From the sequence record NC_028248.1: a stretch of 64,000 nt of DNA; one strand, given 5' to 3'. Below the pieces are notes generated by a model. It did not search any database. It was not told where the DNA came from and saw only the letters and a list, made by a program, of their open reading frames with translations. Made by a program: the position numbers and the translations under genes. Positions 7,387 to 22,805 of this stretch are shown piece by piece. The stretch is from Escherichia phage slur16. Every line of letters starts with the position of its first letter. The first letter of the stretch is position 1.

Positions 7387-7425
7387 TCCTTGTTAACTGC
7401 GTGGTATTTTTAACAGGGTTTAAAT

Positions 7426-7470
7426 TTACTTTATTGATGGCCCTGGAGTCAAGGCCATCTAAAAATAAAT
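7426..7470 (-). repeat. 45-bp intergenic hairpin element, copy 1
   Basis: tttactttattGATGGCCctggagtcaaGGCCATCtaaaaataaa; 7-bp stem GATGGCC/GGCCATC; starts 2 nt after the upstream gene stop. Confidence 0.55.
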
Positions 7471-7471
7471 T

Positions 7472-7672: not shown

Positions 7673-7812
7673 TTTGTTTCTCCTTTCTGGTTTTTGTGGT
7701 GGTGGGGATTAGCTCCCCGTTGATTGTTATTATCCACATTCCGGACCGGATTGCAACACCCCGGAAGAATTTTTTTTTTAAAAGATAGGCCCCCATGATC
7801 GGGGGGCCGTTC

Positions 7813-7932
7813 TTAGTTACTTACAGCGATAAAGTACATCCCTACCCCTAACAATATTTCAAGGGCGATGATCTCAAGCCATACCATAACACGGCGCGCC
7901 TTATCGGTGCGGGGCTTATCCTTGGGTGTCAT
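7813..7932 (-). CDS. small membrane peptide (39 aa)
   Basis: Found by eye: ATG at 7932 (MTPKDKPRTDKARRVMVWLEIIALEILLGVGMYFIAVSN), TAA at 7813-7815. Confidence 0.25.
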   Translation of the reverse strand: MTPKDKPRTDKARRVMVWLEIIALEILLGVGMYFIAVSN

Positions 7933-7952
7933 CGTCTCCCCCTTTCCCCCTG

Positions 7953-8174
7953 TTAGTAGTGACGTGGTTTACAATGGCCCCCAGGAGTACCATCACTACG
8001 CACACCACAAGAAAAATTATCTCTGTCGTTGTTCGATCCATTGTTATAAAATTCCTCAAGATCAGGCTTGAAAATAAAGCGTTCGTTATTGAATCCATCA
8101 CGCCAGGCGGCTGGCTTCAAATCTTCACTAAAGGGATTAATTAACGTGGCATTATTTAAACGGTTGGCCCACAT
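7953..8174 (-). CDS. hypothetical protein (73 aa; track start 8192)
   Basis: GAGAGGAA 8 nt upstream of the ATG at 8174. Confidence 0.35.
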   Translation of the reverse strand: MWANRLNNATLINPFSEDLKPAAWRDGFNNERFIFKPDLEEFYNNGSNNDRDNFSCGVRSDGTPGGHCKPRHY

Positions 8175-8556
8175 ATTTTCTATTCCTCTCAAATAGGCGA
8201 TCCGCCTCAGTTAAACATATCTCATGGGCTTGATCTCTGGTTTTAGCCTCATCGAAAACTTGTTGTGCCAGGCTGCAGCGTAGGGAGACTGGAAGATCAC
8301 TATAATAGGCGTTGACAAACGTTTGAGCGTCGTACAGGTCTGAAAATACTTTACCCTTTCTATTATTCCCCTTGTCAACAATTGCAAGGATAACAAGCAC
8401 AATAGTTGCAACCACCCCCAGGAAAATAGATATAATAAACCATAAAAAGGCGGATCTACCCATCTTGCCAGCGATCCAGGCGTTGAACAAGGCAACTACT
8501 ACAGCCAAAATAATAAATTCCATTCTATGTACCTCTTTTGCAGTTCTGTTTAACAA
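8152..8556 (-). CDS. hypothetical membrane protein (134 aa)
   Basis: Two hydrophobic segments near the N-terminus. Confidence 0.45.
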   Translation of the reverse strand: MLNRTAKEVHRMEFIILAVVVALFNAWIAGKMGRSAFLWFIISIFLGVVATIVLVILAIVDKGNNRKGKVFSDLYDAQTFVNAYYSDLPVSLRCSLAQQVFDEAKTRDQAHEICLTEADRLFERNRKYVGQPFK

Positions 8557-8587
8557 TAAGGCGGCAAATATGCCGCCTGTTACCTGA

Positions 8588-8968
8588 TTAAAAATTATCG
8601 CCGTAAATCTTTCCGCTTTCTGCCCACACCACCACGCGGGGCATGTTATCCCATACGTCTTGTTTTAGATTGAGCGCGTGCAATTCTTCGGTGGTGCCCA
8701 TACCGGGCACGGGCTGATTGTATACTGCAAAACGACCACCCGCATAGTCATAGGCCAGGGTTAAATCACACTGGATCATCTTTTTGATCATGGCGTTGAG
8801 CATAGCGTTAGCCGCATACTGGTCACGTTTTAGGGGCAACTCTTTGATTAGTTTGCGATAGTTTTCAATGTGATCGCACACTGTTTCACGTGGAAGATCT
8901 TTCATATCTTCACGGAATGTAACCAGGTTAAACATAACGGTGTCAATAGCCTTGGTAGTGTTTTTCAT
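8588..8968 (-). CDS. hypothetical protein (126 aa)
   Basis: Track ORF. Confidence 0.45.
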   Translation of the reverse strand: MKNTTKAIDTVMFNLVTFREDMKDLPRETVCDHIENYRKLIKELPLKRDQYAANAMLNAMIKKMIQCDLTLAYDYAGGRFAVYNQPVPGMGTTEELHALNLKQDVWDNMPRVVVWAESGKIYGDNF

Positions 8969-9057
8969 AATGTTTTCCTCTTTGTTTTGTGTGGGGCAAA
9001 CGTCTTGCCCCCTTGAGTTTTAATATAGCAGGTTTTTAGGTTATTGCAACACTTTAT

Positions 9058-9681
9058 TTATGAAAAAGTCATCTCGCCATATTCATCCACATCAAACCGC
9101 CAATCATTGGCCTCAATAAGGCCGATCAGGTTTTCGGTAGTAAACTGTTCAAGATAGGCCTCCTCCAGGTCTACGTAAACCTTGCGGGATAGCTCCCGTA
9201 CCGTCTCGGTGATCAGCTCTTCCAGGTCTTCCACTTTGTTTTCTTGTTTGGCGGTCAGATCTAGCCAGGTGGTATCAATGTATCCGCTTACAGTGTTTTC
9301 GTGACTATAGCGGCTATATGGATCACGCTCAACACTGGCTGATAACTCGCCATCGTGCATTGTGCCGAACAAGTGACGAATTGATCGGAACTTGGTCAGG
9401 GCCTTTACTTTACGCAAAAATTTTTCTAAATCCACGTTTTCAGCACTGATTGACGCGCCGTCACCCTGGCACCAAAAGCCTGACCAATGTACTTCGGTAT
9501 CTTCAAGGCCATACTCTGGAAAAACATATTCTTTATAGTATTCAATTACACTTTCTGCAAAAAAGTTATCCCCGCTGTGTTCTTCTCTTTCGCGGACCAT
9601 TTCAACGGCTTTTTCTTTTTGTTCGTCGGTCAGCACGTCGAAAGATAAATTGTAACCTGCGGTAATGTTAACGGTGGTCAT
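9058..9681 (-). CDS. hypothetical acidic protein (207 aa)
   Basis: Strongly Asp/Glu-rich; promoter, hairpin ggcgggaaaaattcccgcc and GGAGA upstream. Confidence 0.5.
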   Translation of the reverse strand: MTTVNITAGYNLSFDVLTDEQKEKAVEMVREREEHSGDNFFAESVIEYYKEYVFPEYGLEDTEVHWSGFWCQGDGASISAENVDLEKFLRKVKALTKFRSIRHLFGTMHDGELSASVERDPYSRYSHENTVSGYIDTTWLDLTAKQENKVEDLEELITETVRELSRKVYVDLEEAYLEQFTTENLIGLIEANDWRFDVDEYGEMTFS

Positions 9682-9738
9682 GATATTTTCTCCTATTTTC
9701 TTTGTTAGTGGCGGGAATTTTTCCCGCCTGTGTGTTTA

Positions 9739-9766
9739 AGTATACTTATTGAGGCTTACTTGTCAA
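9739..9766 (-). promoter_or_regulatory. sigma70-like promoter (TTGACA-N16-TATACT)
   Basis: Minus strand TTGACAagtaagcctcaataagTATACT. Confidence 0.4.
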
Positions 9767-10016
9767 CACTATTTTTTAAATTATTGTGGCGTAAAATGTT
9801 TAGAATCTCTTCAACGTCATCAACACGGCGGCAATTTTTAAACGCTACCAATTGCCCCCGGATCTTAATCACTGGGCGGCCTTGCCAGTGCCCCTGGAGA
9901 AAGCGCGCTTTAACTTTATCGGTGGAACTATCACGCCACCAAACGGCCTTATTATTGCAGTAGTAAAAATTATTCAGGACAACATCGACTTTATCAAAAT
10001 TTTTTAATTTACGCAT
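9756..10016 (-). CDS. hypothetical protein (86 aa)
   Basis: Track ORF; GAAAGGAG before ATG. Confidence 0.4.
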   Translation of the reverse strand: MRKLKNFDKVDVVLNNFYYCNNKAVWWRDSSTDKVKARFLQGHWQGRPVIKIRGQLVAFKNCRRVDDVEEILNILRHNNLKNSVDK

Positions 10017-10051
10017 GGCGTTTACTCCTTTCTTCTTGCTTTGATGTGGTT

Positions 10052-10080
10052 AGTATATCCAGGCGATTCCAAGGTGTCAA
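10052..10080 (-). promoter_or_regulatory. sigma70-like promoter (TTGACA-N17-TATACT)
   Basis: Minus strand TTGACAccttggaatcgcctggaTATACT. Confidence 0.4.
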
Positions 10081-10250
10081 GCTTTAAATAAAAGATATTT
10101 TTAACACCATAAAACGGTCCTGGGTGATGTTTTCAGGCTAAGAAAGGGGATTGCATAGGTAGGGGCTTTTGTGGCGTTTGTGGGGCCAACCAGGGGCGCT
10201 ATTCGTAGGATAGAAATAAAAAGCCCCGCACAATGGCGGGGCGTTGGTTG

Positions 10251-10472
10251 TTATTTGCCTTTGTGGCGGTATCGTTCCGCCTGTCGTTCACGTTCCAAAA
10301 GCAGGCCCGGTAATTTGCGATCATAGTGATTCCTCCAGATCTTCCCGAACCTTTTCGGTTTATTCAGTTTATTGTTACGCTGGCGGCGTTCCGGCAGCTC
10401 TTCGGAATCGTGGGGGCGCTTTACAATTTTTTCGAAATTAATTTTCATAAATTTCCCCTTTACTAATTTCAA
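10251..10472 (-). CDS. hypothetical basic protein (73 aa)
   Basis: Track ORF, Lys/Arg-rich; overlaps upstream gene 3-prime end. Confidence 0.3.
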   Translation of the reverse strand: MKLVKGKFMKINFEKIVKRPHDSEELPERRQRNNKLNKPKRFGKIWRNHYDRKLPGLLLERERQAERYRHKGK

Positions 10473-10791
10473 TATTTGCCTGAATCGCCCGGATACGACG
10501 TTTTATGACCTCCTGATCCTTGCAATCATATCCCCAAAAGTCTACGATCTTTGCGCCTCCGGCCTTTAGGCGGTATAGTGTTTCCTGCATCTTGTAAGCT
10601 GGGATCGGTCGCGGTGTTACCTGGTCGCCTCTCTCATCTTTGTACTTGATTATGTAGTCTTCGTTGTCGTTGAATACCCAAAATGGGTATTCTGTGAGCG
10701 CGTTGCTATCTTTTTCGTTTTTAGATTGGATCTTGTTTACAATTAAAGCCGTAGCAATAGCGCCAATAATAAAACTAGCCCCGCTGATCAT
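10438..10791 (-). CDS. hypothetical membrane-anchored protein (117 aa; track start 10854)
   Basis: AAGGAG 6 nt upstream of the ATG at 10791; N-terminal hydrophobic helix. Confidence 0.4.
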   Translation of the reverse strand: MISGASFIIGAIATALIVNKIQSKNEKDSNALTEYPFWVFNDNEDYIIKYKDERGDQVTPRPIPAYKMQETLYRLKAGGAKIVDFWGYDCKDQEVIKRRIRAIQANIEISKGEIYEN

Positions 10792-10819
10792 GTACTTTCT
10801 CCTTTCATGGTGTTGATAA

Positions 10820-10865
10820 ATTATCTTTATAGATGGCCCTGCAGCCAGGACCACCGAAAAAATAA
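10820..10865 (-). repeat. degenerate copy of the 45-bp intergenic element
   Basis: ttatctttatagatggccctgcagccaggaccaccgaaaaaataa shares the ctttatagatggccctg half; palindrome not preserved. Confidence 0.35.
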
Positions 10866-11111
10866 CTATTTCACAATGCCTACAAAACAGATCCCGCCTT
10901 CACCTATATAAGCAATATCGGTCACTTTATAACTTGTCAAGATCTGCTTATTTAGTTCATTAATAAAATCGGTCATTGCGTTGGTGTAGTTGTCTTCCGT
11001 GTCTAAGGCATAATCCCAGGTGTACACCTTTTTACGTCCGAAGCCTTTTACCATGATACGGGCGCTTTTGGTGTTGGTAGGGGCATAATATTTGGTGATT
11101 AGTGCTGCCAT
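10866..11111 (-). CDS. hypothetical protein (81 aa)
   Basis: Track ORF; AGGAG before ATG. Confidence 0.45.
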   Translation of the reverse strand: MAALITKYYAPTNTKSARIMVKGFGRKKVYTWDYALDTEDNYTNAMTDFINELNKQILTSYKVTDIAYIGEGGICFVGIVK

Positions 11112-11154
11112 GGTTTTAACTCCTATGCATTAGTTCAGTGTTAACAGTATAAAG

Positions 11155-11198
11155 TTTACTTTATAGATGGCCCTGGTGTCAAGGCCATCTAAAAATAA
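11155..11198 (-). repeat. 45-bp intergenic hairpin element, copy 2
   Basis: tttactttataGATGGCCctggtgtcaaGGCCATCtaaaaataa. Confidence 0.55.
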
Positions 11199-11200
11199 GC

Positions 11201-11542
11201 TTACTCGTTTTCTTCCAGCTCCGCAAGCTCTTCTTTTGCTTCTTCTAACTCTGTCTGTAATTCCTGGTATTCTTCATCGTCCTCAATATCCAGGCTGTCG
11301 ATGTAGTCGCTAAATCCGCAGCGGTAAGCGATAGGATCTAGCTCCTTGAGGATACGCGACGGAAGAAAAGAAATGTTTCCGATCATAATTTCGCCGTAGA
11401 TCTCGTCTAACCATTCATCATAGTTTTCGTCGTACTTGTCCTCGTCGATTTCAAAGTTATCGATCTTATTCTCAAGGTCTGCGATCTGTTTTTTCAGTTC
11501 AGCGATCTGCATAGCTTTTTCTGAGGCGGTCATAGTAGTCAT
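11201..11542 (-). CDS. hypothetical acidic coiled-coil protein (113 aa)
   Basis: Heptad-like N-terminus, very acidic C-terminus (…EEAKEELAELEENE); near-consensus promoter upstream. Confidence 0.5.
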   Translation of the reverse strand: MTTMTASEKAMQIAELKKQIADLENKIDNFEIDEDKYDENYDEWLDEIYGEIMIGNISFLPSRILKELDPIAYRCGFSDYIDSLDIEDDEEYQELQTELEEAKEELAELEENE

Positions 11543-11593
11543 GGTGTTTTTCTCCTTTTGTGTGTTCTGGGAAGTTTTCCCGTTTATGTGCTT

Positions 11594-11621
11594 ATTATAT
11601 CGATTTAAGTTAGCTTGTCAA
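11594..11621 (-). promoter_or_regulatory. sigma70 promoter, near consensus (TTGACA-N16-TATAAT)
   Basis: Minus strand TTGACAagctaacttaaatcgaTATAAT, then hairpin gggaaaacttccc and GGAGA. Confidence 0.5.
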
Positions 11622-11741
11622 TTAAAAGTTTAAGAAAAATTTTGCGACACCGTTGGCGCTACCCATCAACATTTGCGCCAGGATGTACCCAATGATGCAA
11701 ACGATGATGGTTACCTTTGTGTGCTGGCGTGTAGTGCTCAT
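11622..11741 (-). CDS. small membrane peptide (39 aa)
   Basis: Found by eye: GGAGG then ATG at 11741 (MSTTRQHTKVTIIVCIIGYILAQMLMGSANGVAKFFLNF). Confidence 0.3.
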   Translation of the reverse strand: MSTTRQHTKVTIIVCIIGYILAQMLMGSANGVAKFFLNF

Positions 11742-11775
11742 CTTTAAGCCTCCTTTTCCGCTCAACTGTGGTTAG

Positions 11776-11820
11776 TTTACTTTATTGATGGCCCTGGTGT
11801 CAAGGCCATCTAAAAATAAA
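11776..11820 (-). repeat. 45-bp intergenic hairpin element, copy 3
   Basis: tttactttattGATGGCCctggtgtcaaGGCCATCtaaaaataaa; ends 2 nt before the upstream gene stop. Confidence 0.55.
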
Positions 11821-11821
11821 C

Positions 11822-12217
11822 TCAATAAGTTTTTAGTACTTTCCCGTCCAATCTGTCAAGCTGGATCTCAATAGCTGCAGAAAATCTATTGTAAACCACA
11901 TCGCCCAGGGAGTCCAGCCAATCTATGACGTTATACACCTGCTCTTTATTCTTGCAAGTCCGGATCCGTTTCATTACGTAAGACGGATCAATATTAGCGC
12001 TCTCGTTGTTGTGGTCCTGCGCCTGGCCTGCTGCGCTAGTTATAGATTTTACAACCACCTGAAAGGGCTTTAAGGTGCCTTTTGCGTTCATCTCACGCGC
12101 TTTTGCGGCGCGGTTGTTATATGTTACACAACGGCGGCAAATGTTGACCAAATGCATATCAATAATTTTTTCATCGTTTGCCAGTTCGTTCATGATGCGG
12201 CGTACGTTCTTATTCAT
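11822..12217 (-). CDS. hypothetical protein (131 aa)
   Basis: Track ORF; promoter, hairpin ggcgggaaacatcccgcc and AGAGGAAA upstream. Confidence 0.5.
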   Translation of the reverse strand: MNKNVRRIMNELANDEKIIDMHLVNICRRCVTYNNRAAKAREMNAKGTLKPFQVVVKSITSAAGQAQDHNNESANIDPSYVMKRIRTCKNKEQVYNVIDWLDSLGDVVYNRFSAAIEIQLDRLDGKVLKTY

Positions 12218-12262
12218 AGCTTTTCCTCTGTGTTGGCGGGATGTTTCCCGCCTTTTGTGCCT

Positions 12263-12290
12263 AGTTTACTTGAATTTTGCAGCGTGTCAA
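12263..12290 (-). promoter_or_regulatory. sigma70-like promoter (TTGACA-N16-TAAACT) with A-tract upstream
   Basis: Minus strand aaaaaaaaaaaaattaTTGACAcgctgcaaaattcaagTAAACT. Confidence 0.45.
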
Positions 12291-12304
12291 TAATTTTTTT
12301 TTTT

Positions 12305-12703
12305 TTATTCGTGGGCGCATGTTACAATGTGCTTTTTATAGCCCAAGTGGTTAGCAAGTGCCGCCAAAAACTCTTCTTCATAGATCCAGCCGTCGGCAGT
12401 GATTCCCATGGCACTTAATGCGCTTTCAAGTGCAGCGTTGGCTTTATCATAACCGTGACCGCTCGCCTTGCCGCCAGTATAACCGTACTTATTGTTCTTG
12501 TTGTCGTGAATCCAAAATACACAGTAATGAGTGTTACCGCTGGCGGCGGCATAATACCGGATCTCAGCTACTTCGTGCAAATTATTGTCATCGTCCAGGC
12601 CCACCAGATTATAGGCCTTGTAGAATCCGCGATCACGGCGGCAGCTTTTAACATCAGAAAAAGAGAAGTCAGCATTATTAAAATTAAAGGTTGTGGTTTT
12701 CAT
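12305..12703 (-). CDS. hypothetical protein (132 aa)
   Basis: Track ORF; AAGAGGA before ATG. Confidence 0.5.
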   Translation of the reverse strand: MKTTTFNFNNADFSFSDVKSCRRDRGFYKAYNLVGLDDDNNLHEVAEIRYYAAASGNTHYCVFWIHDNKNNKYGYTGGKASGHGYDKANAALESALSAMGITADGWIYEEEFLAALANHLGYKKHIVTCAHE

Positions 12704-12735
12704 GATTTTATCCTCTTAGTGTCTTTTGTGCTTTC

Positions 12736-12764
12736 AGTATATTTTGTTTCAGACTGTATGTCAA
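12736..12764 (-). promoter_or_regulatory. sigma70-like promoter (TTGACA-N17-TATACT)
   Basis: Minus strand TTGACAtacagtctgaaacaaaaTATACT. Confidence 0.4.
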
Positions 12765-12767
12765 TAC

Positions 12768-12965
12768 TTATTTTTTATTAAACCAGTGGTTGATCTGACC
12801 TTTTGTCAGGGCGCAACGATTAAGCTGTTGCAGGGTATAGCTATGACCGCGACGAAATTTATAAAGGCCTTGCCCGTTGTTGATGGTTACATCCACCCGG
12901 CAAATCACTTGATTGGTGACCACCTGGCGAGTGTTGCGACGTGCTTTGATTCCGTATGCGTTCAT
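12768..12965 (-). CDS. hypothetical basic protein (65 aa)
   Basis: Track ORF; AGAGAGGATAA before ATG. Confidence 0.35.
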   Translation of the reverse strand: MNAYGIKARRNTRQVVTNQVICRVDVTINNGQGLYKFRRGHSYTLQQLNRCALTKGQINHWFNKK

Positions 12966-13259
12966 GATTTCTTATCCTCTCTGTTAATTAGTGTGGTGTT
13001 GTTCACCTTGCGAGAATAAGAATAACAAGAACTGTCCGAGCTGTCAACCACTATGCAAAATTATTTTTGGGCAAAATTCTCCAGCCGCCGCCCCTGCCAG
13101 GTTAACCACCGTTTTCGTACTCTTCTTTATGTTCCGGTGCTTCCGTTTTAGCCTTCTCGACCAGGGCGATAGCTTCCGTATCATCAATTACTATTTTCCA
13201 GGTGAGTAGCATTACCTTTCATTTTTGTACCTCTTCTGTAGCTGTTCACTTTATAGCGC

Positions 13260-13560
13260 GGACCTGCCAGGTTGGCCCCGCCAGGTCCCGACAGTGGGCG
13301 CACCTGGTTATAATTTTTTTTTTGAAAGGTGTTGACAGCGGCCCCGCCAGGTGGCACAATATACCTATCGAAAGGACGGCAGGCACCGGTGACGGGGGAG
13401 ACAACCACCGGAGATGGGCGCTGCGTAAAATGAGAACGGTTATCATTATCATTTAAAAATTTATGCAAAAAATCCTTGCTTTCTTTGTCCTGTGTGATAC
13501 TATAATAACAAGCCGGGGCAACAGGGGCCGGGAGACAATCACCGGGCCTGCCCGTTATTC
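13260..13560 (+). promoter_or_regulatory. promoter-like cluster with ccaggt boxes and two direct E-element copies
   Basis: ggccccgccaggt exact at 13274-13286 and 13340-13352; TTATAAT at 13308-13314; TTGACA at 13333-13338; TATAAT at 13501-13506; E cores at 13394-13411 and 13530-13552. Confidence 0.4.
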
Positions 13561-13699
13561 TGCAAACGAGAATGATTATCATTCAAAATTCTAAATGAGA
13601 ACTCCTCGCATTTAATAAATTTAATTAGCATGCTAATTACCCTCCGTAACAATTTCCTATAAAACAGTATCCCATAAAATATTCCCATATAGAAATTTT

Positions 13700-13890
13700 A
13701 AAAATCCATTTCTGAAAACGAAAAATCGATTTCGTCCCCAAAAATTTCAGGTCGAGATCCGGAACGATTTCCAGAAAATCCGATTTAGAAAACGAAAAAC
13801 AGATCGAGTACTGAGAAATTTATCGAGAAAAATTTTCAGAAAATCCAAGCCATGAAATGAAAAGTAGATCGAGTACTGGAAAAATTGTAC
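13700..13890. repeat. degenerate tandem repeats (~3 copies, period ~65 bp)
   Basis: agaaaatccgatttagaaaacgaaaaacagatcgagtactgagaaa vs agaaaatccaagccatgaaatgaaaagtagatcgagtactggaaaa; aaaatcc box also at ~14045 and ~14132; inverted repeat atcaggag/ctcctgat at 14124-14158. Confidence 0.5.
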
Positions 13891-14185
13891 CGCAACCCAC
13901 TGATAGTGATGGGTTTTCCGTCATAAATCACTAAGAGTGAGTGGAGAAAGGTATGGTGGAGAGGTGTGTATGTGTGGGAAATCTGTAATGGTGGCCTGAA
14001 ATATGGTGCAAACGGCTAGATAGATTGGCACAATTTTCCGCGCCTGTGTTGAAAAAATCCATTTCAGTTTTCGATCCATTTTCTGATTTTCTAAGAATTT
14101 TAAAATATCTATGTGTTCAAAATATCAGGAGAAAATCCATTTTAGAAATTCTCCTGATTTCTGGCAACTTGGCAATTTAAAAATA

Positions 14186-14518
14186 TCAGGTGCCCAGTTT
14201 GTTCTTTCCTTTATATAAACGCAAGGGTATAGTTTTTGTAACAGTCCACCTTCCTACACCTTCCCAGTTCCAGTTGTAGGCATGGTACCCGGTTACGCAT
14301 GCACTGCTAGAGTGGTCATAGGCATAAGAGAACGCTATACGCACCAGGTGGGGCCAGTCCTTCCATGGTTGTGGTCCGTAAGCTTTTCTCCAACACCGAC
14401 ACAAACTAAATGTCTCAAGAATAGGTAGGATAACAAATCCATACACCGCCACCAGAATAGCCAGCGCAATGATTGTCAGGAATACATACCCTGCAGTTGA
14501 AACGATGATCTCTGTCAT
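14186..14518 (-). CDS. hypothetical membrane protein (110 aa)
   Basis: Long N-terminal hydrophobic segment. Confidence 0.45.
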   Translation of the reverse strand: MTEIIVSTAGYVFLTIIALAILVAVYGFVILPILETFSLCRCWRKAYGPQPWKDWPHLVRIAFSYAYDHSSSACVTGYHAYNWNWEGVGRWTVTKTIPLRLYKGKNKLGT

Positions 14519-14712
14519 TTGTCGTCCCCTTTCTTACGAATATAGATGTGAGAGCCTGCCTGTATATAAATTTCTCGACCATCCTCTGCAAAGATATGAA
14601 ATACACGATCACCTTCGTACTCGATACGAGATATCTTCATAATGGTCTTTCCACCTGGGATACGGATCTCGTCCCCCACAGCGATGTTCCATGCAGATTT
14701 AAGCTTAAACAT
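14515..14712 (-). CDS. hypothetical protein (65 aa; track start 14778)
   Basis: AAGGAAGG 5 nt upstream of the ATG at 14712 gives a short overlap with the upstream gene. Confidence 0.4.
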   Translation of the reverse strand: MFKLKSAWNIAVGDEIRIPGGKTIMKISRIEYEGDRVFHIFAEDGREIYIQAGSHIYIRKKGDDK

Positions 14713-14950
14713 CTGCACCTTCCTTTGGGAGCTCGAACTCTGGCATAGCCATATACGCCACAACAGGGTTGTAATCAAAGTAGAAATGACCGTTAATTAT
14801 CCCAGTTTTGTGAGCATAGTCACCAGATCCTGCAAGAACAACCTCGCAAACTCCGAAATCAACCTTGCCATTCTCATCTGCCATGGCTACAATATACTTT
14901 CCTAGAGGTATGTTTTTAACGCCGTCTACAAATGTCCACCCTTTGTTCAT
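14705..14950 (-). CDS. hypothetical protein (81 aa)
   Basis: Track ORF. Confidence 0.45.
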   Translation of the reverse strand: MNKGWTFVDGVKNIPLGKYIVAMADENGKVDFGVCEVVLAGSGDYAHKTGIINGHFYFDYNPVVAYMAMPEFELPKEGADV

Positions 14951-14971
14951 AACTTTATCTCCTGGACTTTC

Positions 14972-15304
14972 TTAAGGTAACCAGTAAACAATTTCGCCTT
15001 TCAGTTCCATGTCGTTACCGACATAGATTTTCCAGCCATCCATTTTAGCCACTGCAGGAGTGAAGTCCGAAGAACCACTAACCTCTTTCCAAGTCCCGTA
15101 GTCAGGTTGCCAGATATAGAATCCACCTTCCTTGTCCCATGCTCCATATACCACATCGAGCAGGTTGCCCATTGCAACAATAGTAGGCCGTGGGAATAAT
15201 ACATCTACAGATGCACCACAATTTCGGGTAGATTTTAAATTACAATTCCAAAAGATGTCTGCCAGTGTGGCGGCAATAGCTTTACGTCTTTCCAATGTTA
15301 CCAT
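14972..15304 (-). CDS. hypothetical protein (110 aa)
   Basis: Track ORF. Confidence 0.45.
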   Translation of the reverse strand: MVTLERRKAIAATLADIFWNCNLKSTRNCGASVDVLFPRPTIVAMGNLLDVVYGAWDKEGGFYIWQPDYGTWKEVSGSSDFTPAVAKMDGWKIYVGNDMELKGEIVYWLP

Positions 15305-15311
15305 ATCATAC

Positions 15312-15503
15312 TCACTTGTTGTTAATAAGTTCTAAAACTTTCTGTCTTACTTTGTCAAGGTCTGTGGATTCAAAAACTGTACGGTATCCCCAACTTTGCC
15401 CATAGGAGTGACTGCAATCCCCGTAGCACCATTGCTCAATTTGATAGTATTCAAGGAACGGGTGCTGTCTAACTATGATACCATCTCGGTTAAAAATTAC
15501 CAT
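15312..15503 (-). CDS. hypothetical protein (63 aa)
   Basis: Track ORF. Confidence 0.4.
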   Translation of the reverse strand: MVIFNRDGIIVRQHPFLEYYQIEQWCYGDCSHSYGQSWGYRTVFESTDLDKVRQKVLELINNK

Positions 15504-15566
15504 AATACATCGCTCTCTGTTAGTTTATGCGTATATTATACACTGCAGTTTTCAGATGTCAACCTC

Positions 15567-15818
15567 TTACAGATTGCTCCAGTACAATCGGCATTTACAT
15601 TTTGGGCAATGAGGTTCTTTTATATAATAACCATCAGTCTTTGGAACACTTTTTGGTGCAGTTTTAAGATTGTACCTGGTAAAACATCGGAAGCAGGTTA
15701 CCTCTCCCACCTGTTGATCGTTGATCCACTCACCAGAGTAAAGTTCTTTCTTGTTTCTCATAATTCTCTCCCAAATCATCTGCAATCTTATACCAAAATC
15801 TCCAGCCAGAAAGCACAC
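15567..15818 (-). CDS. hypothetical zinc-ribbon protein (83 aa)
   Basis: CxxC…CPKCKC cysteine pattern. Confidence 0.4.
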   Translation of the reverse strand: MCFLAGDFGIRLQMIWERIMRNKKELYSGEWINDQQVGEVTCFRCFTRYNLKTAPKSVPKTDGYYIKEPHCPKCKCRLYWSNL

Positions 15819-16012
15819 GGGAACACTTTGAGGATTGAATCTTTACTTGGCTCGGAAGTTCTTTTTCCGTATGGTAGGTAGAAATACTCTCCTGCAGATT
15901 CGAATATAGCTCCTTCGGTTGTATCTACCACAGCAAGAATTAAGATTTTAGTCTCCACAGTGCTCTCCTCTCTTAGTTGTTGTGGAGACTATATCACCTC
16001 AGAAGATGGTCG

Positions 16013-16471
16013 TCAACACTTTTTGTACTCTACTACAACCACATCAATATCTGTGGTTGCAAGATTAATTACATCTTCCACATGTTCCCACTTTAGACCG
16101 CCAATACCGCATCCGATTTTAGGAATGTAGAACGGCAATGACACACCTTTGAATACCTCGTTGACTCGCTCAAAACCTTTCATGATTGAGAAGTATTCAG
16201 CATTGGGCCCTGGGTAGAACTGGGTATACAGGTTGATTCCATATACGACCCTGTTCTTGGCAAAATGCTCCCAACAAGAAAACATACCCAGCTTGTCTAG
16301 ATTCCCATAAGCAGTCTCTTTGTCGGCTGCCAGTGCTTGAGGGAACTCACGGGCAATATCTTTCGCTATGCCTGCACCCATTGTGTGAAAGCAGTTACAA
16401 CCGTGGATCATGTGGCCTGACCCTTTCTTGAAAATGGAGATTAGATCTCCACCTATAGTATCAATAATCAC
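16013..16471 (-). CDS. macro-domain protein (ADP-ribose binding / ADP-ribosyl hydrolase-like)
   Basis: GDLISIFKKGSGHMIHGCNCFHTMGAGIA resembles the macro N-terminal GDIT…NAAN…GGGV block; later IGCGIGGL glycine loop; likely GTG start at 16471 with GAGGAG upstream (track start 16570). Confidence 0.55.
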   Translation of the reverse strand: MIIDTIGGDLISIFKKGSGHMIHGCNCFHTMGAGIAKDIAREFPQALAADKETAYGNLDKLGMFSCWEHFAKNRVVYGINLYTQFYPGPNAEYFSIMKGFERVNEVFKGVSLPFYIPKIGCGIGGLKWEHVEDVINLATTDIDVVVVEYKKC

Positions 16472-16886
16472 GGTATGCCAGCTCCTCTTCTGCAATTTCA
16501 AAAAACTCAGTCCAGCACTGTGGCATATTGGAGTTACCGAAGTGGCTTTCATAGTAAAGGTTCTCACCACTTGGAAGATAGAAATCTGTTACCTCATAGA
16601 ATCCACAATCGTCGCACTCACCTTCTTCAAACTTGGCCTCAACCTTAATACCGAGGAAGGTGAAAAGTTTATGGATATCTTCAGTTTCGAACTCCCAGTG
16701 AATGTTGTTTTCCGCATCGGTGTAGAACTGGATCAGCAGACCATTGTCCAGTTTACCAAAATACTCTGTGAAGTAACTTCCTTCCCAGAAATCTTTATGA
16801 CAAATAATATCCATGCGTTTGCCCATAATAATGGTGTGAGCGTTTTGGGCATCATCACGAATCAGTTTTGGCATTTCATAGATCAT
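16461..16886 (-). CDS. hypothetical acidic protein (141 aa)
   Basis: Track ORF. Confidence 0.45.
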   Translation of the reverse strand: MIYEMPKLIRDDAQNAHTIIMGKRMDIICHKDFWEGSYFTEYFGKLDNGLLIQFYTDAENNIHWEFETEDIHKLFTFLGIKVEAKFEEGECDDCGFYEVTDFYLPSGENLYYESHFGNSNMPQCWTEFFEIAEEELAYRDY

Positions 16887-16954
16887 CTTAGTTCTCCGGG
16901 TTCAACAGGTGGTGGTGCTACAGGAAGATCATAAAACATGGCTATCACAGTCTC

Positions 16955-17152
16955 TTACACAGGAATTGCTTCAAATAGACCGTTATCTATACCGTCCTTC
17001 AGATAGAGATTATATTCTATATCGGTATCTGTATAAAGGGCAGCATCCAGCATTCTATCTGTGAGTCCATCCATCGGGTGGAGAAACCACCACCCACGCC
17101 AGTCAAAGTAACAGCCTGGTGCATCTTCTCTTACACGGATTCTATAAATCAT
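16955..17152 (-). CDS. hypothetical protein (65 aa)
   Basis: Track ORF. Confidence 0.35.
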   Translation of the reverse strand: MIYRIRVREDAPGCYFDWRGWWFLHPMDGLTDRMLDAALYTDTDIEYNLYLKDGIDNGLFEAIPV

Positions 17153-17248
17153 GGGCAGTGGCCTCCTGTTAGTTATACATCCCAGTTTTCTTCGTTCATC
17201 ACGTCCTCCCGTTCTATGAAGTTATAATTACACACCTTTCAACTTGTG

Positions 17249-17665
17249 TCAACAGAAAACTTCAACAAATTCTTCCACAGTTTTAATGTCGTGGGAAAAA
17301 GGTTTACGGCTATAACGGGCAATAGCACTATCAACCACCGCCCGGTACTCCAAATCTTCAGAATATTTCATGAAGCATTGCAGCGTCTCTGGGCAGATAG
17401 CTAAATAGCTCCACCACCCCTCTTCAGATTGGTAGTCGAATCCCATACTCTCCAACCATGAAGCATATACGCCTGCACCCTCAAGCCAGTGAGTATTTTC
17501 ATCCAGAAACTTGTTAATAGACATGTGAGCTTCTAAGCATTTATCCAGCTCTTTTCCGTTAACCAGCCACGCACTGACCGTGGCGCATCCAAAGTCTACA
17601 GATTGAGTTGACAGGTTGTATTGGTCATAGTTCTCAGGTTTAACAATGATATCTTCTAATGTCAT
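17249..17665 (-). CDS. hypothetical protein (138 aa)
   Basis: Track ORF. Confidence 0.45.
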   Translation of the reverse strand: MTLEDIIVKPENYDQYNLSTQSVDFGCATVSAWLVNGKELDKCLEAHMSINKFLDENTHWLEGAGVYASWLESMGFDYQSEEGWWSYLAICPETLQCFMKYSEDLEYRAVVDSAIARYSRKPFSHDIKTVEEFVEVFC

Positions 17666-17690
17666 TTTTCAGATCTTCTTATACAAAAAT

Positions 17691-17712
17691 GCCCCACCCT
17701 TTCGGGCAGGGC
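17691..17712 (-). terminator. intrinsic terminator-like hairpin
   Basis: Minus strand gccctgcccgaaagggtggggc followed by atttttg; identical 22-mer at 28457-28478. Confidence 0.5.
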
Positions 17713-17727
17713 TATGTTAACTAGATG

Positions 17728-18306
17728 TTAGAAGTATTCATAGAGGTATCCATCGGGAGCTGGAATTTTTTCATGAATGTAGTAATCAACACATATCCCT
17801 GTTTCTCTTCGGCAAGAATTGTGGGATACCCATTCTTTAAGAACGTTGCCATTCATGTCCAGCCTCCTTACATTTTTACACCGTCTACCACTGGTGCTTC
17901 TATGTAACAGAATATCCTCTGTCTGCTTGTCTTTATTTTCTCCCCAAGTCGTTAAACGGATATTATCAAAAGAGTATCCTTTGAAATCATCTATCCTGTC
18001 ACAAGAAGGCTTTTTCCTTTTGTCGTATCCGCTGGCTACCCACTGGTCATACAACTCTTTGTAACCGTTCAGGTATAGCCACTCCTTAAACTCTTTTTTG
18101 GTGTAAGTCGGAGGAGGGTGACCTCTTTGCTTGCTGTTGCACTTTTGAGCCTTGTACAGCACGCGTATTACACCTTTTTCTGAAGAGTTGTGGGAAAACT
18201 GGTCAGCCTCCCTACTGGCCTTCTTGCAACACTCTTTGCACGTTGATTTGTTACTGGTGTAGAAGTCGGAGGCCTCCTTGTCCTCTCCACAACGTTTGCA
18301 TTTCAT
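17728..18306 (-). CDS. HNH / endonuclease VII-like (His-Me finger) protein with N-terminal Cys cluster
   Basis: CDRIDDFKGYSFDNIRLTTWGENKDKQ resembles the HNH core; CKRCG…CKECC zinc-finger-like N-terminus; free-standing next to the SSB-like gene. Confidence 0.4.
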   Translation of the reverse strand: MKCKRCGEDKEASDFYTSNKSTCKECCKKASREADQFSHNSSEKGVIRVLYKAQKCNSKQRGHPPPTYTKKEFKEWLYLNGYKELYDQWVASGYDKRKKPSCDRIDDFKGYSFDNIRLTTWGENKDKQTEDILLHRSTSGRRCKNVRRLDMNGNVLKEWVSHNSCRRETGICVDYYIHEKIPAPDGYLYEYF

Positions 18307-18314
18307 AACTGACC

Positions 18315-19541
18315 TCAGAAAGGGATCGAGTCATCGAACTCATACTGTGCTGGATTCTGATCCATCGGGTCATCTTCCTCATCATTTACAGGAGGAGCGT
18401 CTACAGTGTTTTGCTGTGGAGCGGCTTCCTGTTTGGCAGCCTGAGGTTCTTGATGGTCAGTTGACCCAGCACCGTTCTTGATCCAATCGTACAACGGCTC
18501 AGCCAGATTAGTCAAGACATCTTTTGCTTCTGCAGTAATTGCCGCTGCAAAATCATCAACTTTCGTTTTCTTGTCAATACGGCGACAAGCGTTCAACACC
18601 GCATTACCGACACTGGCACCTACTTCATCCTCAGTTCGGTTGGTGGCTTGAGCATACTCTTTCTTAAGCTCAATGGTGACTACGTGCAGTGTTTTAGCCA
18701 CGCTTAGTGGGTCGTCCACCTTAAACCCGCGATCTAGGATGATTTGCAACGCATTGATGCTATGTCCCGTCTCCACACCAATAGGGTCGTAAGAGGATTT
18801 ACGCTTGCCACCAGAGCCTTGGGTGCCGTTCTCTGCCTTAGGTGGATAGGCTTTGAAACCACTGATAATGTTTCCGGTGTCTTTGTCAACAATGGCTGCA
18901 ACACGACCACCTACCACCAGGTCTTTAAGCTGCTCATCAGTGACAACCATGGCACCTTCGCCAATCTTGTGGTCATTAACAGTAACCACGTTGCCAACAA
19001 TCTGAGTCACATCGCCATAGATGCGTAAAACGTCCTGATTGGCATTCTGCTGAGGTTTCTGCTTCTGGCCTTGTGATTGTGCACCTTGTTGCTGTTTTTG
19101 CTGCTGAGTCGCTGCTGGAGCCTCTCCTGCACCCAGCTTGACCATCTTAGCTAGTGAGCCTTTGTAATAGGTCTTACCGTTATGCTCGTTTGCCTTCAAA
19201 GGGATATTTACGATCCATCCCGGCGTTACGGTTTCCCACTTGTCATCAATTTTAACAGAGACAGAGTCTTGATGACCAGGTTTAAGCAGCTTATCACCCA
19301 TACTGATCCAAACTTCTTCACCACCTTGAAGCAGGTTATCAGAGGAATCCAGTTCAGAAATCAGTAAAGAGATGGTGTGGCTGGATTCAATTTTCTTACC
19401 TTGCCACACAGTGGTTTTAATACCTGTTGTAGGATCAGCACCTTTGATAGGTTTGATGCTGACACGTTTAATCATGCCGTGAGCCAGTAAAACAGTTTCA
19501 CGCGGATTCATCGGGTTAGCGAATTGTTGAATAACGCTCAT
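18315..19541 (-). CDS. single-stranded DNA-binding protein-like, with acidic C-terminal tip
   Basis: C-terminus …YEFDDSIPF closely matches the bacterial SSB tip; Gln/Ala-rich linker; position next to replication genes. Confidence 0.5.
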   Translation of the reverse strand: MSVIQQFANPMNPRETVLLAHGMIKRVSIKPIKGADPTTGIKTTVWQGKKIESSHTISLLISELDSSDNLLQGGEEVWISMGDKLLKPGHQDSVSVKIDDKWETVTPGWIVNIPLKANEHNGKTYYKGSLAKMVKLGAGEAPAATQQQKQQQGAQSQGQKQKPQQNANQDVLRIYGDVTQIVGNVVTVNDHKIGEGAMVVTDEQLKDLVVGGRVAAIVDKDTGNIISGFKAYPPKAENGTQGSGGKRKSSYDPIGVETGHSINALQIILDRGFKVDDPLSVAKTLHVVTIELKKEYAQATNRTEDEVGASVGNAVLNACRRIDKKTKVDDFAAAITAEAKDVLTNLAEPLYDWIKNGAGSTDHQEPQAAKQEAAPQQNTVDAPPVNDEEDDPMDQNPAQYEFDDSIPF

Positions 19542-19906
19542 TATTTGTCTCCTTGTTCTTCGTTAGTGTTTGCTGTGTGTGCAAACCCTGCTTGAATTAA
19601 TTTGTCCTGAACTTGAGCCAACAGGCCCATTGCAAAACTTGTAGTCCCAGAGAGGGCCATTAGCATATCTCGTTGTTGAGCTACCCAACCTAAGGCATAG
19701 TCCAAACGACGATATTTTTCTTCTTCACGCAGAGCCTGAAATAATTGTTCAGCCTCCGGTTGTTGTGTGAGCTCCTGAAGTCTTCCCATGAAAGAAGAAA
19801 GCACTAGCAAAAGAGACACTTGATCTTTACTTAACCCTAAGAAAAATTCTTGAGGTTGTTCTTGCTCGTTCATCGCAACCGACGCTTGATCGTTCATTTG
19901 TTCCAT
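19541..19906 (-). CDS. hypothetical protein (121 aa)
   Basis: Track ORF; start overlaps the SSB-like gene stop. Confidence 0.45.
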   Translation of the reverse strand: MEQMNDQASVAMNEQEQPQEFFLGLSKDQVSLLLVLSSFMGRLQELTQQPEAEQLFQALREEEKYRRLDYALGWVAQQRDMLMALSGTTSFAMGLLAQVQDKLIQAGFAHTANTNEEQGDK

Positions 19907-19989
19907 TATGGAATCTCCGATTTTATTTGAACAACATAGAAGGAGACACTATTTTAGCATCCCCTTCTGTAAATTACAATAGATATTTG

Positions 19990-20235
19990 TTAGCCAATCA
20001 CTTCAAAAGTTCCCCAATTCCCGTCCAGCAGGCAGGTGATCGGATCCCCATCGTCGTCAAAGATTTCAAAGTTTTCAGCATCCAGGATGTGGCCCTCGAA
20101 CACAATACTTTCGTCGCCACCACCAGAAATAACAGCGTATTCCTTACCTTGAGTCAAGTTTTGACACCCTTTGCCACCAAAACCTACTTCAACACAACGT
20201 ACTTTCTGTCCTACGCGAGCAACTACTTCAGTCAT
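19990..20235 (-). CDS. hypothetical protein (81 aa)
   Basis: Track ORF. Confidence 0.4.
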   Translation of the reverse strand: MTEVVARVGQKVRCVEVGFGGKGCQNLTQGKEYAVISGGGDESIVFEGHILDAENFEIFDDDGDPITCLLDGNWGTFEVIG

Positions 20236-20252
20236 CTTAAGGTCTCCTGATA

Positions 20253-20573
20253 TTAATCGTCAAGTTCAAAATAGATTTTAACAGCTTCATCAAAGATTGG
20301 AATCCCGATGTTGTTGATAAGCTGCCAAACTACCATATCTTTACCTGGATCTGGGAGAATGTCAACCTTTCTCCATGCGCTGTATACCCAGTTCGGACCG
20401 CCTTCTGCACTAACTGGCAGATTTTCACCAGCTTCCTGTAGATACTTATACAGCAAAAGATATTCTGGATACTCTAGAACACTGTCCTCTGTAGTATATA
20501 GCAGTTCACGGTATACTTTTAAGAACCCTGCTGGGGTAATGTTTTCAGTCTTCATTTGCCGCTTCTCCTGCAT
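20253..20573 (-). CDS. hypothetical protein (106 aa)
   Basis: Track ORF. Confidence 0.45.
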   Translation of the reverse strand: MQEKRQMKTENITPAGFLKVYRELLYTTEDSVLEYPEYLLLYKYLQEAGENLPVSAEGGPNWVYSAWRKVDILPDPGKDMVVWQLINNIGIPIFDEAVKIYFELDD

Positions 20574-20937
20574 TCATCAGGTCTGCCATAGCGTCACCCA
20601 CGAAGAGAACAACCACATCGTTGACAGCGTCAGCATCATCTTTGTTGACGTTGCTGAATTTAGGACACACAGCAATGATCATATAGACACCGTTACCCAC
20701 CTGAACTGTCCGTGTGGTGCACATCATGGCTGTATTTGTGCCTTCTTTGAAGGCGAAGCCTTGAAGACGCTCCTCTAAAGTGTTACCGGTAGATTTCAGA
20801 AGCGCCAGCTCGTCCAAGGCATAGATGATATCTCCTGAAGTTAGTGTTGCCTTGCCATCAGACACCATAATCACTCCATCAGCACCGTCAAGCTTAGAGG
20901 CTTCAAAGATATCAATATCCCAAATATTTTTCATCAC
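20545..20937 (-). CDS. hypothetical protein (130 aa)
   Basis: Track ORF. Confidence 0.45.
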   Translation of the reverse strand: MMKNIWDIDIFEASKLDGADGVIMVSDGKATLTSGDIIYALDELALLKSTGNTLEERLQGFAFKEGTNTAMMCTTRTVQVGNGVYMIIAVCPKFSNVNKDDADAVNDVVVLFVGDAMADLMNAGEAANED

Positions 20938-21266
20938 GCTTCCTCGTCGTCTAAGTAATCATCAAGAGAGGTGAAGATTTCACCGAAGTATTCTAAGATT
21001 TCTAGCTCACGTGTGGTGCAGAAAACACAGTCACCGTTGTCATCCTCGATAACGGCCTTTTTACCCAGCACATCTACTTCAAGTTTATCGTTCAACAGGA
21101 CAGCTCCTGTGTAAACTTTGTCGGCTGTACAGTCCCGAAAAGCAGAATCCTTCTCCAGATAGTCTGGCTTAACCTTGGCTTTAATTCGTTGATATTGTTT
21201 AGTCATTGCTGTGGTCCCCTTTCGTTTTGATAGGGCCATTATATTAGGCCCCATCACTGTTGTCAA
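20934..21266 (-). CDS. hypothetical protein, paralog of 21270..21524
   Basis: Shares KP…D.AF.DCT…DD.GD.V.CT..E pattern with the adjacent ORF. Confidence 0.45.
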   Translation of the reverse strand: MTTVMGPNIMALSKRKGTTAMTKQYQRIKAKVKPDYLEKDSAFRDCTADKVYTGAVLLNDKLEVDVLGKKAVIEDDNGDCVFCTTRELEILEYFGEIFTSLDDYLDDEEA

Positions 21267-21269
21267 GTA

Positions 21270-21524
21270 TTAATGTTCAGGTTTTACAAAAACTACTTCG
21301 TTAACAGTGCACCAGACAGAATCTCCTTCGTCATCTTTAAAGGTAAGGCACTGGGCTGAGTTTTCCAGCTCATCAATCTCTTCTTGTGATAAAGGAGCCC
21401 CTTCTTCCAAAAGGGCTTTTACTAAAGGGTTCTCACAAAACTCTGCTTCATAAATAGCACCAAGCGTGCAATCTTTAAAAGCTCGGTCATTTGCAACGCA
21501 TGCTGGTTTCAACATGATTTTCAT
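21270..21524 (-). CDS. hypothetical protein, paralog of 20934..21266
   Basis: DRAFKDCTLGAIY / DSAFRDCTADKVY and DSVWCTVNE / DCVFCTTRE alignable by eye. Confidence 0.45.
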   Translation of the reverse strand: MKIMLKPACVANDRAFKDCTLGAIYEAEFCENPLVKALLEEGAPLSQEEIDELENSAQCLTFKDDEGDSVWCTVNEVVFVKPEH

Positions 21525-21600
21525 TTTAGCAGTCTCCTCAATTATTTAAAAATCAACTCTCTGTTTGTGTGAAGCATCTTATATCTAATCTTACTTCTTA

Positions 21601-21999
21601 TCAATGACTATTTTCAATCAGCCACACAGGGTCGAGGTAAATTTGTTGGCGTGTTGCCCAATGACAAACTTCATTGTACGTCTGAACCTCTTTGTCTGTC
21701 AATTCACGAATAGGCTCATCTATACCCTCATTTTTGTGGTAATCCCAGTCGGCATCGATTTCCCACAGCCATGACTTGTTGTCACCACGCTTACGCACAC
21801 AGAAGTCACCAGGACGGCCTGCCAGTGCATTTAAGAACTCGTTCTCTGCTCGCTCCTGAAGAATGCTAAGGAGCAAAACGTTGGAGCATGACCGTAAAAT
21901 ATGCTTCAGCTCGCAGTCATCAATCTCAACTTCAATACGTTGTTTGACTGTGTGGGTACCTTTTACTAACATTCTACCTCCTCTATACAAACTCTGCAA
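21601..21999 (-). CDS. hypothetical protein (132 aa)
   Basis: Track ORF. Confidence 0.45.
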   Translation of the reverse strand: MQSLYRGGRMLVKGTHTVKQRIEVEIDDCELKHILRSCSNVLLLSILQERAENEFLNALAGRPGDFCVRKRGDNKSWLWEIDADWDYHKNEGIDEPIRELTDKEVQTYNEVCHWATRQQIYLDPVWLIENSH

Positions 22000-22177
22000 G
22001 TGTTGTGTTGTTCACTGCACCGCAGTAAATGGAGTATCCCAGCCCATTAGGGTGCAGAAACCACGGCGTGCCGAAATTATCTTTCACGTAGACATCGCCG
22101 TTGCTTGTAAAGGGCCAATATTCTTCACCAAGGGTGAAATACCTACTCATACCCTCAGCCAGATACTTTACTTTCAT
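21983..22177 (-). CDS. hypothetical protein (64 aa)
   Basis: Track ORF. Confidence 0.35.
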   Translation of the reverse strand: MKVKYLAEGMSRYFTLGEEYWPFTSNGDVYVKDNFGTPWFLHPNGLGYSIYCGAVNNTTLAEFV

Positions 22178-22401
22178 AGGTCCTCTTCAACAGCTACAAA
22201 CTTGGCAAGCAGGGTGGTTCCGTAGATATGATACTCACCGTTTGCCAGATGGGAGATAAACCAGGCAATCCCTTCCTCGTCTTTAATCATCTTGTTTGCA
22301 CGAGCTTTATCGTAATAAACCTCGTAGGTCTTTCCTTCTTTAAAGAATGACAGGTCTGTCATCTTTTCTTCTACAAAGGTAGCTTTAACCAAAGTCGTCA
22401 T
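22174..22401 (-). CDS. hypothetical protein (75 aa)
   Basis: Track ORF. Confidence 0.4.
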   Translation of the reverse strand: MTTLVKATFVEEKMTDLSFFKEGKTYEVYYDKARANKMIKDEEGIAWFISHLANGEYHIYGTTLLAKFVAVEEDL

Positions 22402-22805
22402 TGATCAGTCTCCTTCTTGTTAAGTCTGAATACTGCAATAATAGCATTCCCAAGGTGCAGTGTCAAATCATTTCCAAGATACCACAGCATTCCACGGTCA
22501 TCTTTGATGAAAGGGTAGCAATTTGGTGCCTTCTCTTTAATGAAAGGGTGACAATCTGGTGCCTTCCAGACATTGTACACTTTCCCAACCTGAAAGAAAT
22601 CAGGCCCTGTTGGGATTTTAGTGCCTGGCCACACTTGAGATACCTGAACACACTCCACCTGCATAATAACAGGGATAGTCATGGATGTAAATGTTTTTGT
22701 TGGTTCTACTACCATAAAAGTCTCCTCTTTGCTCAACAACACTTCCATGTGTTGATAGTTTACATTAGTGACAATCACCCCAATTACGACCACACAGGTA
22801 TTCAC
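22398..22805 (-). CDS. hypothetical protein (135 aa; start uncertain)
   Basis: Track start overlaps the polymerase 3-prime end by 40 nt; internal Met at 22748 is an alternative. Confidence 0.4.
   Translation of the reverse strand: MNTCVVVIGVIVTNVNYQHMEVLLSKEETFMVVEPTKTFTSMTIPVIMQVECVQVSQVWPGTKIPTGPDFFQVGKVYNVWKAPDCHPFIKEKAPNCYPFIKDDRGMLWYLGNDLTLHLGNAIIAVFRLNKKETDQ

Follow-up and report, generated by a model that had tools for sequence, protein, structure and literature searches.

A stand-alone macrodomain protein of the T4 Tk.4/AdfM family in Escherichia phage slur16 and its probable role in reversing DarT2-made DNA ADP-ribosylation

The macrodomain gene and its neighbourhood

The DNA analysed here (the window) is a stretch of 64,000 nucleotides from Escherichia phage slur16 (NC_028248.1), which is 100% identical, across the 3 kb compared, to the genome of the rV5-like Vequintavirus slur12 (GenBank LN881735.1). 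On its minus strand, positions 16013..16471 translate into an open reading frame (ORF) of 152 codons followed by a TGA stop, and these coordinates coincide with those of the annotated minus-strand CDS CUL03238.1, 'Macro domain protein', of slur12. The gene occurs as a single copy in the slur12 record, as does its homologue in that of T4. The motifs from which the initial annotation had proposed a macrodomain (an N-terminal block and a glycine loop) are found in the minus-strand translation exactly as it had quoted them, with GDLISIF at amino acids 8-14, HGCNCFHTMGAGIA at 23-36, and IGCGIGGL at 119-126. The locus holds the following features:

16013..16471, minus strand: macrodomain gene, homologue of T4 tk.4/adfM; 152 aa plus TGA, GTG start
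16482..16487, minus strand: Shine-Dalgarno motif GAGGAG, read from the sequence, 10 nt upstream of the GTG and within the 3' end of the upstream ORF
16461..16886, minus strand: upstream ORF of 141 aa (ORF141), whose stop overlaps the start of the macrodomain gene by 11 nt
16955..17152, minus strand: ORF of 65 aa (ORF65), the first of a putative three-gene transcription unit (ORF scan and neighbour searches)
17224..17252, minus strand: candidate sigma70-like promoter, TTGACA-N17-AATTAT with a TG, that would drive ORF65, ORF141, and the macrodomain gene; identified by consensus match alone
17691..17712, minus strand: intrinsic-terminator-like hairpin of 9 pairs (7 G-C) followed by a T run, closing the preceding unit, as read from the sequence
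15988..16016, minus strand: candidate sigma70-like promoter, TTGACG-N17-TATAGT with a TG, read at the 3' end of the macrodomain gene and suited to the downstream small genes

The maximal ORF is longer than the annotated gene, reaching a GTG at 16570 (185 aa). The initial annotation had favoured an internal GTG, and the one at 16471-16469 is supported by the annotated start of CUL03238.1 in LN881735.1, by a codon-for-codon alignment with the ATG start of the homologues in Krischvirus G2494 and in T4 (GTGATTATTGAT versus ATGATTATTGAT), by the GAGGAG motif upstream, and by the typical length of the homologues (150-155 aa). The longer starts, either the GTG at 16570 or the TTG of PMBT16 (165 aa), were rejected because the homologues begin at the position of GTG 16471. 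The 30 nt preceding this codon are kept in rV5 and PMBT16. Among three Vequintaviruses the gene shows a dN/dS of 0.11-0.36, an estimate of low power since each pair differs at merely 10-12 nucleotides.

Small genes on the minus strand surround the macrodomain gene, which is found downstream of those for rIIA/rIIB, helicases, primase, and DNA polymerase and in their orientation. The rV5 paper regards this region as a single large transcription unit of non-structural genes, with promoters of the host type. Between 12 and 22 kb of the window, 42 sigma70-like sites were counted versus 18.3 ± 4.5 in shuffled sequences, an enrichment that fits transcription of this interval by the host RNA polymerase. 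On the minus strand of 12000..22000, two perfect TTGACA/TATAAT sites are also found between small ORFs (e.g., 21266..21238 and 15562..15535). Given the sigma70-like promoters and the co-orientation with the replication genes, early expression of the macrodomain gene from host-type promoters is plausible, while the 11-nt overlap suggests that its translation may be coupled to that of ORF141.

The protein encoded by ORF141 was considered as a partner of the macrodomain protein and rejected. It has no match in Pfam or the PDB and no PHROG function, its homologues form only 4 clusters among 5.8 billion proteins, all of them Vequintavirus-like, and the homologue that the rV5 annotation recognizes in RB49 is encoded far from RB49 tk.4, with no conserved linkage found. 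In one relative, a 121-aa gene call (P0015) matches both ORF141 (100% identity over 39% of ORF141) and the macrodomain protein (65% identity, 73%), which indicates a fused or rearranged junction in that genome. Just upstream of the macrodomain operon, an endonuclease VII/HNH-like gene is located (17728..18306, minus strand; PHROG 1035, 4.5e-34), annotated in several relatives as a putative homing endonuclease, and rV5 covers the 3-kb region around the macrodomain gene in two pieces, which suggests a nearby indel. Searches against Pfam and PHROGs revealed no DarT, ADP-ribosyltransferase (ART), or other ADP-ribose-related domain in ten neighbouring genes, and an ARAGORN run over the window (1..64000) gave no tRNA genes.

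Fold and active site

The protein is a macrodomain, as profile searches, a predicted structure, and a fold search all confirm. Pfam Macro (PF01661) matches it with 25.9 bits (E 1e-5), above the gathering cut-off of 22, and most of its homologues, 267 of which were found at E<=1e-3, carry a precomputed PF01661 flag. It also matches PHROG 335 ('phosphatase') at 4e-59. The AlphaFold2 model, built with 65 homologues, is very confident (pLDDT 96.1, pTM 0.91) and shows the three-layer alpha/beta/alpha fold of macrodomains with two glycine-rich ADP-ribose-binding loops. Both checks that the initial annotation had proposed at this level, a profile HMM search and a structure prediction, have therefore come out in its favour. 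The nearest neighbours by structure and by profile belong to the ALC1-like/Poa1p-like class (TARG1, DarG, SCO6735, and Poa1p) and not to the MacroD, PARG, or viral X-domain classes, and a profile of the family matches Bt_1257, SCO6735, TARG1, and DarG at 5e-15 to 8e-12. The window protein is thus a macrodomain of the ALC1-like/Poa1p-like class.

When the model was searched against BFVD, a protein of 302 aa from Marseillevirus ranked first among the viral structures, with 39% identity and a TM of 0.93 across the query. Its record name, 'SNF2 subfamily protein', recalls ALC1, which combines a SNF2 ATPase with a Gln-type macrodomain in one chain. With lengths of 180-260 aa, several of the phage homologues carry sequence beyond the macrodomain.

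The active site comprises the following elements:

16364..16405, minus strand: ADP-ribose-binding/catalytic loop, aa 23-36 (HGCNCFHTMGAGIA), defined by alignments and including the invariant N26
16220..16222, minus strand: codon of Q84, in the motif N-L-Y-T-Q; invariant in 119/119 and in the column of DarG K80, TARG1 K84, and SCO6735 Q85
16094..16117, minus strand: second glycine-rich (diphosphate-binding) loop, aa 119-126 (IGCGIGGL), with P117, G120, and G122 invariant and TARG1 D125 replaced by Gly

Invariance was counted over the 119 members of the Tk.4 family with at least 130 aa. Thirteen columns are identical in all of them (G24, N26, C27, G34, A36, D50, N80, Y82, T83, Q84, P117, G120, and G122), and the window protein holds every one of these residues. 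The codon of N26 (16394-16396) aligns with N27 of SCO6735 and with N23 of the PhiKZ AdfM, and at the column of the catalytic Lys of DarG and TARG1 all 119 members have a Gln. Among the residues outside these known positions, D50 (in a motif A-D-K) and C27 are invariant (119/119) and H23 and H29 nearly so. For D50, C27, and H29, no equivalent exists in DarG, TARG1, or SCO6735, and H23 is common to the window protein, TARG1, SCO6735, Bt_1257, and Poa1p.

A Gln at the Lys column together with an Asn in the catalytic loop defines the Gln-type macrodomains, and both are found in the window protein, in which NLYTQ aligns with NMIGQ of SCO6735 and N26 with N27. SCO6735 from S. coelicolor has been shown to cleave ADP-ribose linked to thymidine on DNA and to rescue E. 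coli from DarT; its Q85A variant is inactive as an enzyme but still inhibits DarT2, the N27S variant is almost inactive, and a water-mediated mechanism has been proposed by its authors. Like the window protein, SCO6735 and Bt_1257 are orphan Gln-type ALC1-like macrodomains. Unlike in SCO6735, however, the loop that follows the Gln is 5-6 residues shorter in the window protein and lacks K89/K94, and Gly24 occupies the column of Val25, so that the traits regarded by the SCO6735 authors as specific to that enzyme (Val/Ile25 and an extended, Lys-bearing mobile loop) are both absent. The family also has invariant residues that set it apart from SCO6735 and Bt_1257, namely C27, D50, Y82, and T83.

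The DarG2 antitoxins, known from the macrodomains of Mtb and T. aquaticus (PDB 5M3I/5M31), differ from the window protein in several respects. They carry a C-terminal DarT-binding domain, which the 152-aa window protein lacks, and their catalytic Lys80 corresponds to Gln84. The NCBIfam DarG model NF048014 matches with 1.7e-11 and 44 bits versus a cut-off of 250, covering positions 9-144 of 338, and the PADLOC DarG model matches with 1.8e-12 over positions 9-143 of 329; in both cases only the macro part is aligned. With a whole-protein score under the cut-off, K80 replaced by Q84, and no darT among the ten neighbouring genes searched, the window protein does not qualify as a DarG2 antitoxin. 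In human TARG1/OARD1, the catalytic dyad K84/D125 corresponds to Q84/G124.

From these alignments, catalysis in the window protein is most likely SCO6735-like, with Gln84 held by Asn26, while the lysine mechanism of DarG and TARG1 appears unlikely. As judged by residue comparison, no characterised mechanism maps completely onto the window protein, because it has neither the DarG catalytic lysine nor the longer Lys-bearing mobile loop and Val25 of SCO6735.

Relationship to phage Tk.4 and AdfM proteins

The window protein and T4 Tk.4 are 39% identical over 153 columns, that is, over their full length (E 2e-43), and the annotation of rV5 already names the orthologous gene 'tk.4'. Both are single stand-alone macrodomains of similar size (152 versus 155 aa), with the common motifs HGCNCFHTMG...NLYTQF...P(K/R)IGxG and a Gln at the column of the DarG Lys, and both genes lie within non-structural clusters of small genes. 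They differ in that the window gene comes from the Vequintavirinae instead of the Straboviridae, is not located beside vs/tk, and starts with GTG where T4 tk.4 has ATG.

Homologues of the macrodomain gene were found by tblastn in 2738 of 50,697 phage records, which include T4-like phages and Krischviruses as well as phages of Acinetobacter, Vibrio, Klebsiella, Salmonella, and Pseudomonas; a published survey reports macrodomains in 41% of myoviruses. A copy with 97% identity is carried by Bas59, a Vequintavirus of the BASEL collection. Outside the Vequintaviruses, the nearest homologue is the Tk.4 of Krischviruses (RB49-like), e.g., G2494, with 67% identity, which is encoded at the canonical regB-vs...tk locus. 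The window also encodes a 64-aa Phage_zn_bind_2 protein (15567..15761, minus strand; Pfam 8e-23) that is 78% identical to the product of the gene directly following the tk.4-type macrodomain gene in G2494. The two genes adjoin in G2494, whereas in the window they are separated by an additional ORF of 56 aa. The presence of this macrodomain and Zn-ribbon pair in both RB49-like and rV5-like phages suggests that a small block has been exchanged or that the two are functionally linked. A link with T4 Tk.3 was discarded, as the Zn-binding protein has no similarity to it. Bacterial homologues were also considered as DarG-like antitoxins and rejected, the copy of Pelagimonas being a lone chromosomal gene without darT; an 'Acinetobacter baumannii' copy is located on a T4-like phage contig.

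A second phage protein bears the name AdfM. In vitro, the chimallivirus protein gp104 of PhiKZ frees a TNTC oligonucleotide from the ADP-ribose added by DarT2; the protein also rescues DarT2 toxicity, and its N23A mutation lowers activity (Morgan et al., Cell Rep 2026, PMC13309987). Like the window protein, it is a stand-alone phage macrodomain with an Asn in the catalytic loop (N23, in the N26 column). However, the two share 22% identity, and PhiKZ AdfM is of the Lys type (FPTKDNW, similar to FPTKKHW of DarG) while the window protein is of the Gln type. In addition, gp104 is imported into a phage nucleus. Against the Tk.4-family profile, PhiKZ AdfM scores 39 bits, versus 58 for Bt_1257 and SCO6735, 53 for TARG1, and 51 for Mtb DarG. 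These scores and the motifs, used here in place of a phylogeny, point to separate lineages for the Tk.4-type and the PhiKZ-type AdfM, and the latter has probably been recruited independently.

A more far-reaching view of this lineage is possible, although we consider it rather doubtful. The Tk.4-type macrodomains might represent a separate Gln-type lineage akin to the 'genome-guardian' enzymes SCO6735, Bt_1257, and ALC1, and not a domesticated DarG, with a lysine-independent, water-mediated chemistry and family-specific residues (D50, C27, and Y82-T83-Q84). Their substrates might then be wider, covering ADP-ribose on DNA and on protein or RNA, so that they would protect against several ADP-ribosylating defences, and phages would have recruited macrodomains independently at least twice, as the Tk.4 type and as the PhiKZ gp104 type.

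Probable role against DarTG2 and alternative explanations

The function of this family has been approached in T4. In the HIDEN-SEQ preprint of November 2025 (Humolli et al., bioRxiv 10.1101/2025.11.20.689424), tk.4 was the one T4 gene significantly depleted on a host with DarTG2, and a clean tk.4 knockout sensitised T4 to DarTG2; the gene was named adfM (anti-DarT factor Macrodomain). The evidence presented there is genetic, and the hydrolase mechanism was deduced by the authors from the similarity to DarG. Other anti-DarT factors use different routes. DarT itself is bound by AdfA and AdfB, while the guanosine adducts of DarT1 are the specific target of the NADAR enzyme AdfN. Within the Tk.4 family, the anti-DarTG2 phenotype is known from T4 alone. 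Our literature search found no experiment on the window protein or on any Vequintavirus homologue; HIDEN-SEQ included Bas54 (Vequintavirinae), and the accessible part of the preprint reports no DarTG2 test for this phage.

By analogy with these systems, the window protein is probably a stand-alone, antitoxin-like ADP-ribosyl-DNA (thymidine) glycohydrolase of the T4 Tk.4/AdfM family that reverses the modification made by DarT2. In the proposed pathway, the host toxin DarT2 of DarTG2 systems attaches ADP-ribose to the thymidine of TNTC motifs in single-stranded phage DNA, blocking replication. The phage enzyme would hold the ADP-ribose in its cleft, where Gln84, positioned by Asn26, would orient the distal ribose together with an activated water molecule, and would cut the bond between ribose and thymine. 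Release of the ADP-ribose would restore replicable DNA, and the protein would in effect be an orphan antitoxin devoid of the DarT-binding C-terminal domain of DarG. The proposal of the initial annotation that this protein counters an ADP-ribosylating defence is thus supported by analogy with the genetics of T4 Tk.4/AdfM and the biochemistry of PhiKZ AdfM and SCO6735. Its further suggestion of a role against NAD+ depletion finds no support, as a macrodomain hydrolase would not reverse such depletion. Moreover, at 39% identity the substrate specificity of the window protein could differ from that of T4 Tk.4.

The strongest alternative is that the protein is a broader or different eraser, acting mainly on ADP-ribose attached to proteins or RNA (e.g., by other host ADP-ribosyltransferase defences or toxins), with DNA thymidine as a minor substrate or one of several. 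Both SCO6735, the closest Gln-type enzyme, and TARG1 hydrolyse protein-linked as well as DNA-linked ADP-ribose, and the very wide spread of the family over 2738 phage records, together with the reported share of myoviruses that have macrodomains, arguably exceeds what one defence system would account for. Nevertheless, tk.4 stood alone under DarTG2 selection, its loss sensitised the phage, and no other phenotype has been reported; the extended loop of SCO6735 is, in addition, missing from the window protein. We therefore regard this alternative as unlikely, albeit worth keeping in mind.

Less probable still is a housekeeping enzyme acting on small molecules, either an ADP-ribose-1''-phosphate phosphatase or an O-acetyl-ADP-ribose deacetylase, as the label 'phosphatase / Poa1p-like' on many records would imply. 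The substrate of yeast Poa1p, Appr1p, is a small molecule, and of the Poa1p residues mutated in PDB 6LFS/6LFT, H23 aligns with H23 and S30 with T30 of the window protein, while F152 has no confident alignment; H23 and T30 are the sole aligned Poa1p residues. But these labels were inherited from domain-level annotation and not from assays in phages, the scan of neighbouring genes gave no sign of a tRNA-splicing-type origin of Appr1p (KptA/2H), and the defence-specific phenotype of the T4 homologue would be left unexplained.

It is very improbable that the protein is a binder or scavenger of ADP-ribose-derived immune signals (e.g., Thoeris-type) or a direct, stoichiometric inhibitor of DarT. The invariance across the Tk.4 family of the Asn and Gln that are catalytic in SCO6735 argues for an enzyme, and the ThsA macrodomain resembles the model far less closely in structure than the DarG/TARG1 class does. 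The least credible explanation is a regulator of the phage's own ADP-ribosyltransferases that would reverse Alt/Mod-type modifications: T4 does have both ARTs and Tk.4, and ARTs and macrodomains are both enriched in myoviruses, but no ART that could serve as a partner is annotated in the about 95 kb of rV5 inspected (outside 45-88 kb) or in 1-50 kb of PMBT16, weak evidence in view of this coverage and of the sparse annotations, and supplying T4 Alt in trans rescued Bas54 on Mokosh, as if this phage had no Alt function of its own.

The anti-DarTG2 role of the family, published for T4, and the annotation of the gene as a macrodomain protein are already known. New in this work are the recognition of a Gln-type active site, shared with SCO6735 and Bt_1257, and the evidence for distinct Tk.4-type and gp104-type AdfM lineages. 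If the window protein acts like T4 AdfM, rV5-like phages would carry a ready counter to DarTG2; apart from this, the annotation is correct but unsurprising, since macrodomains are the commonest ADP-ribose-processing domains in large myoviruses. Such a counter, if real, would bear on the prediction of host range for E. coli strains with DarTG systems, a relevant matter for phages that serve to type O157 and attract interest as agents of biocontrol and therapy. Finally, the replacement of Lys by Gln across the Tk.4 family suggests a difference in mechanism, open to experimental test, between the two phage proteins that are both named AdfM.
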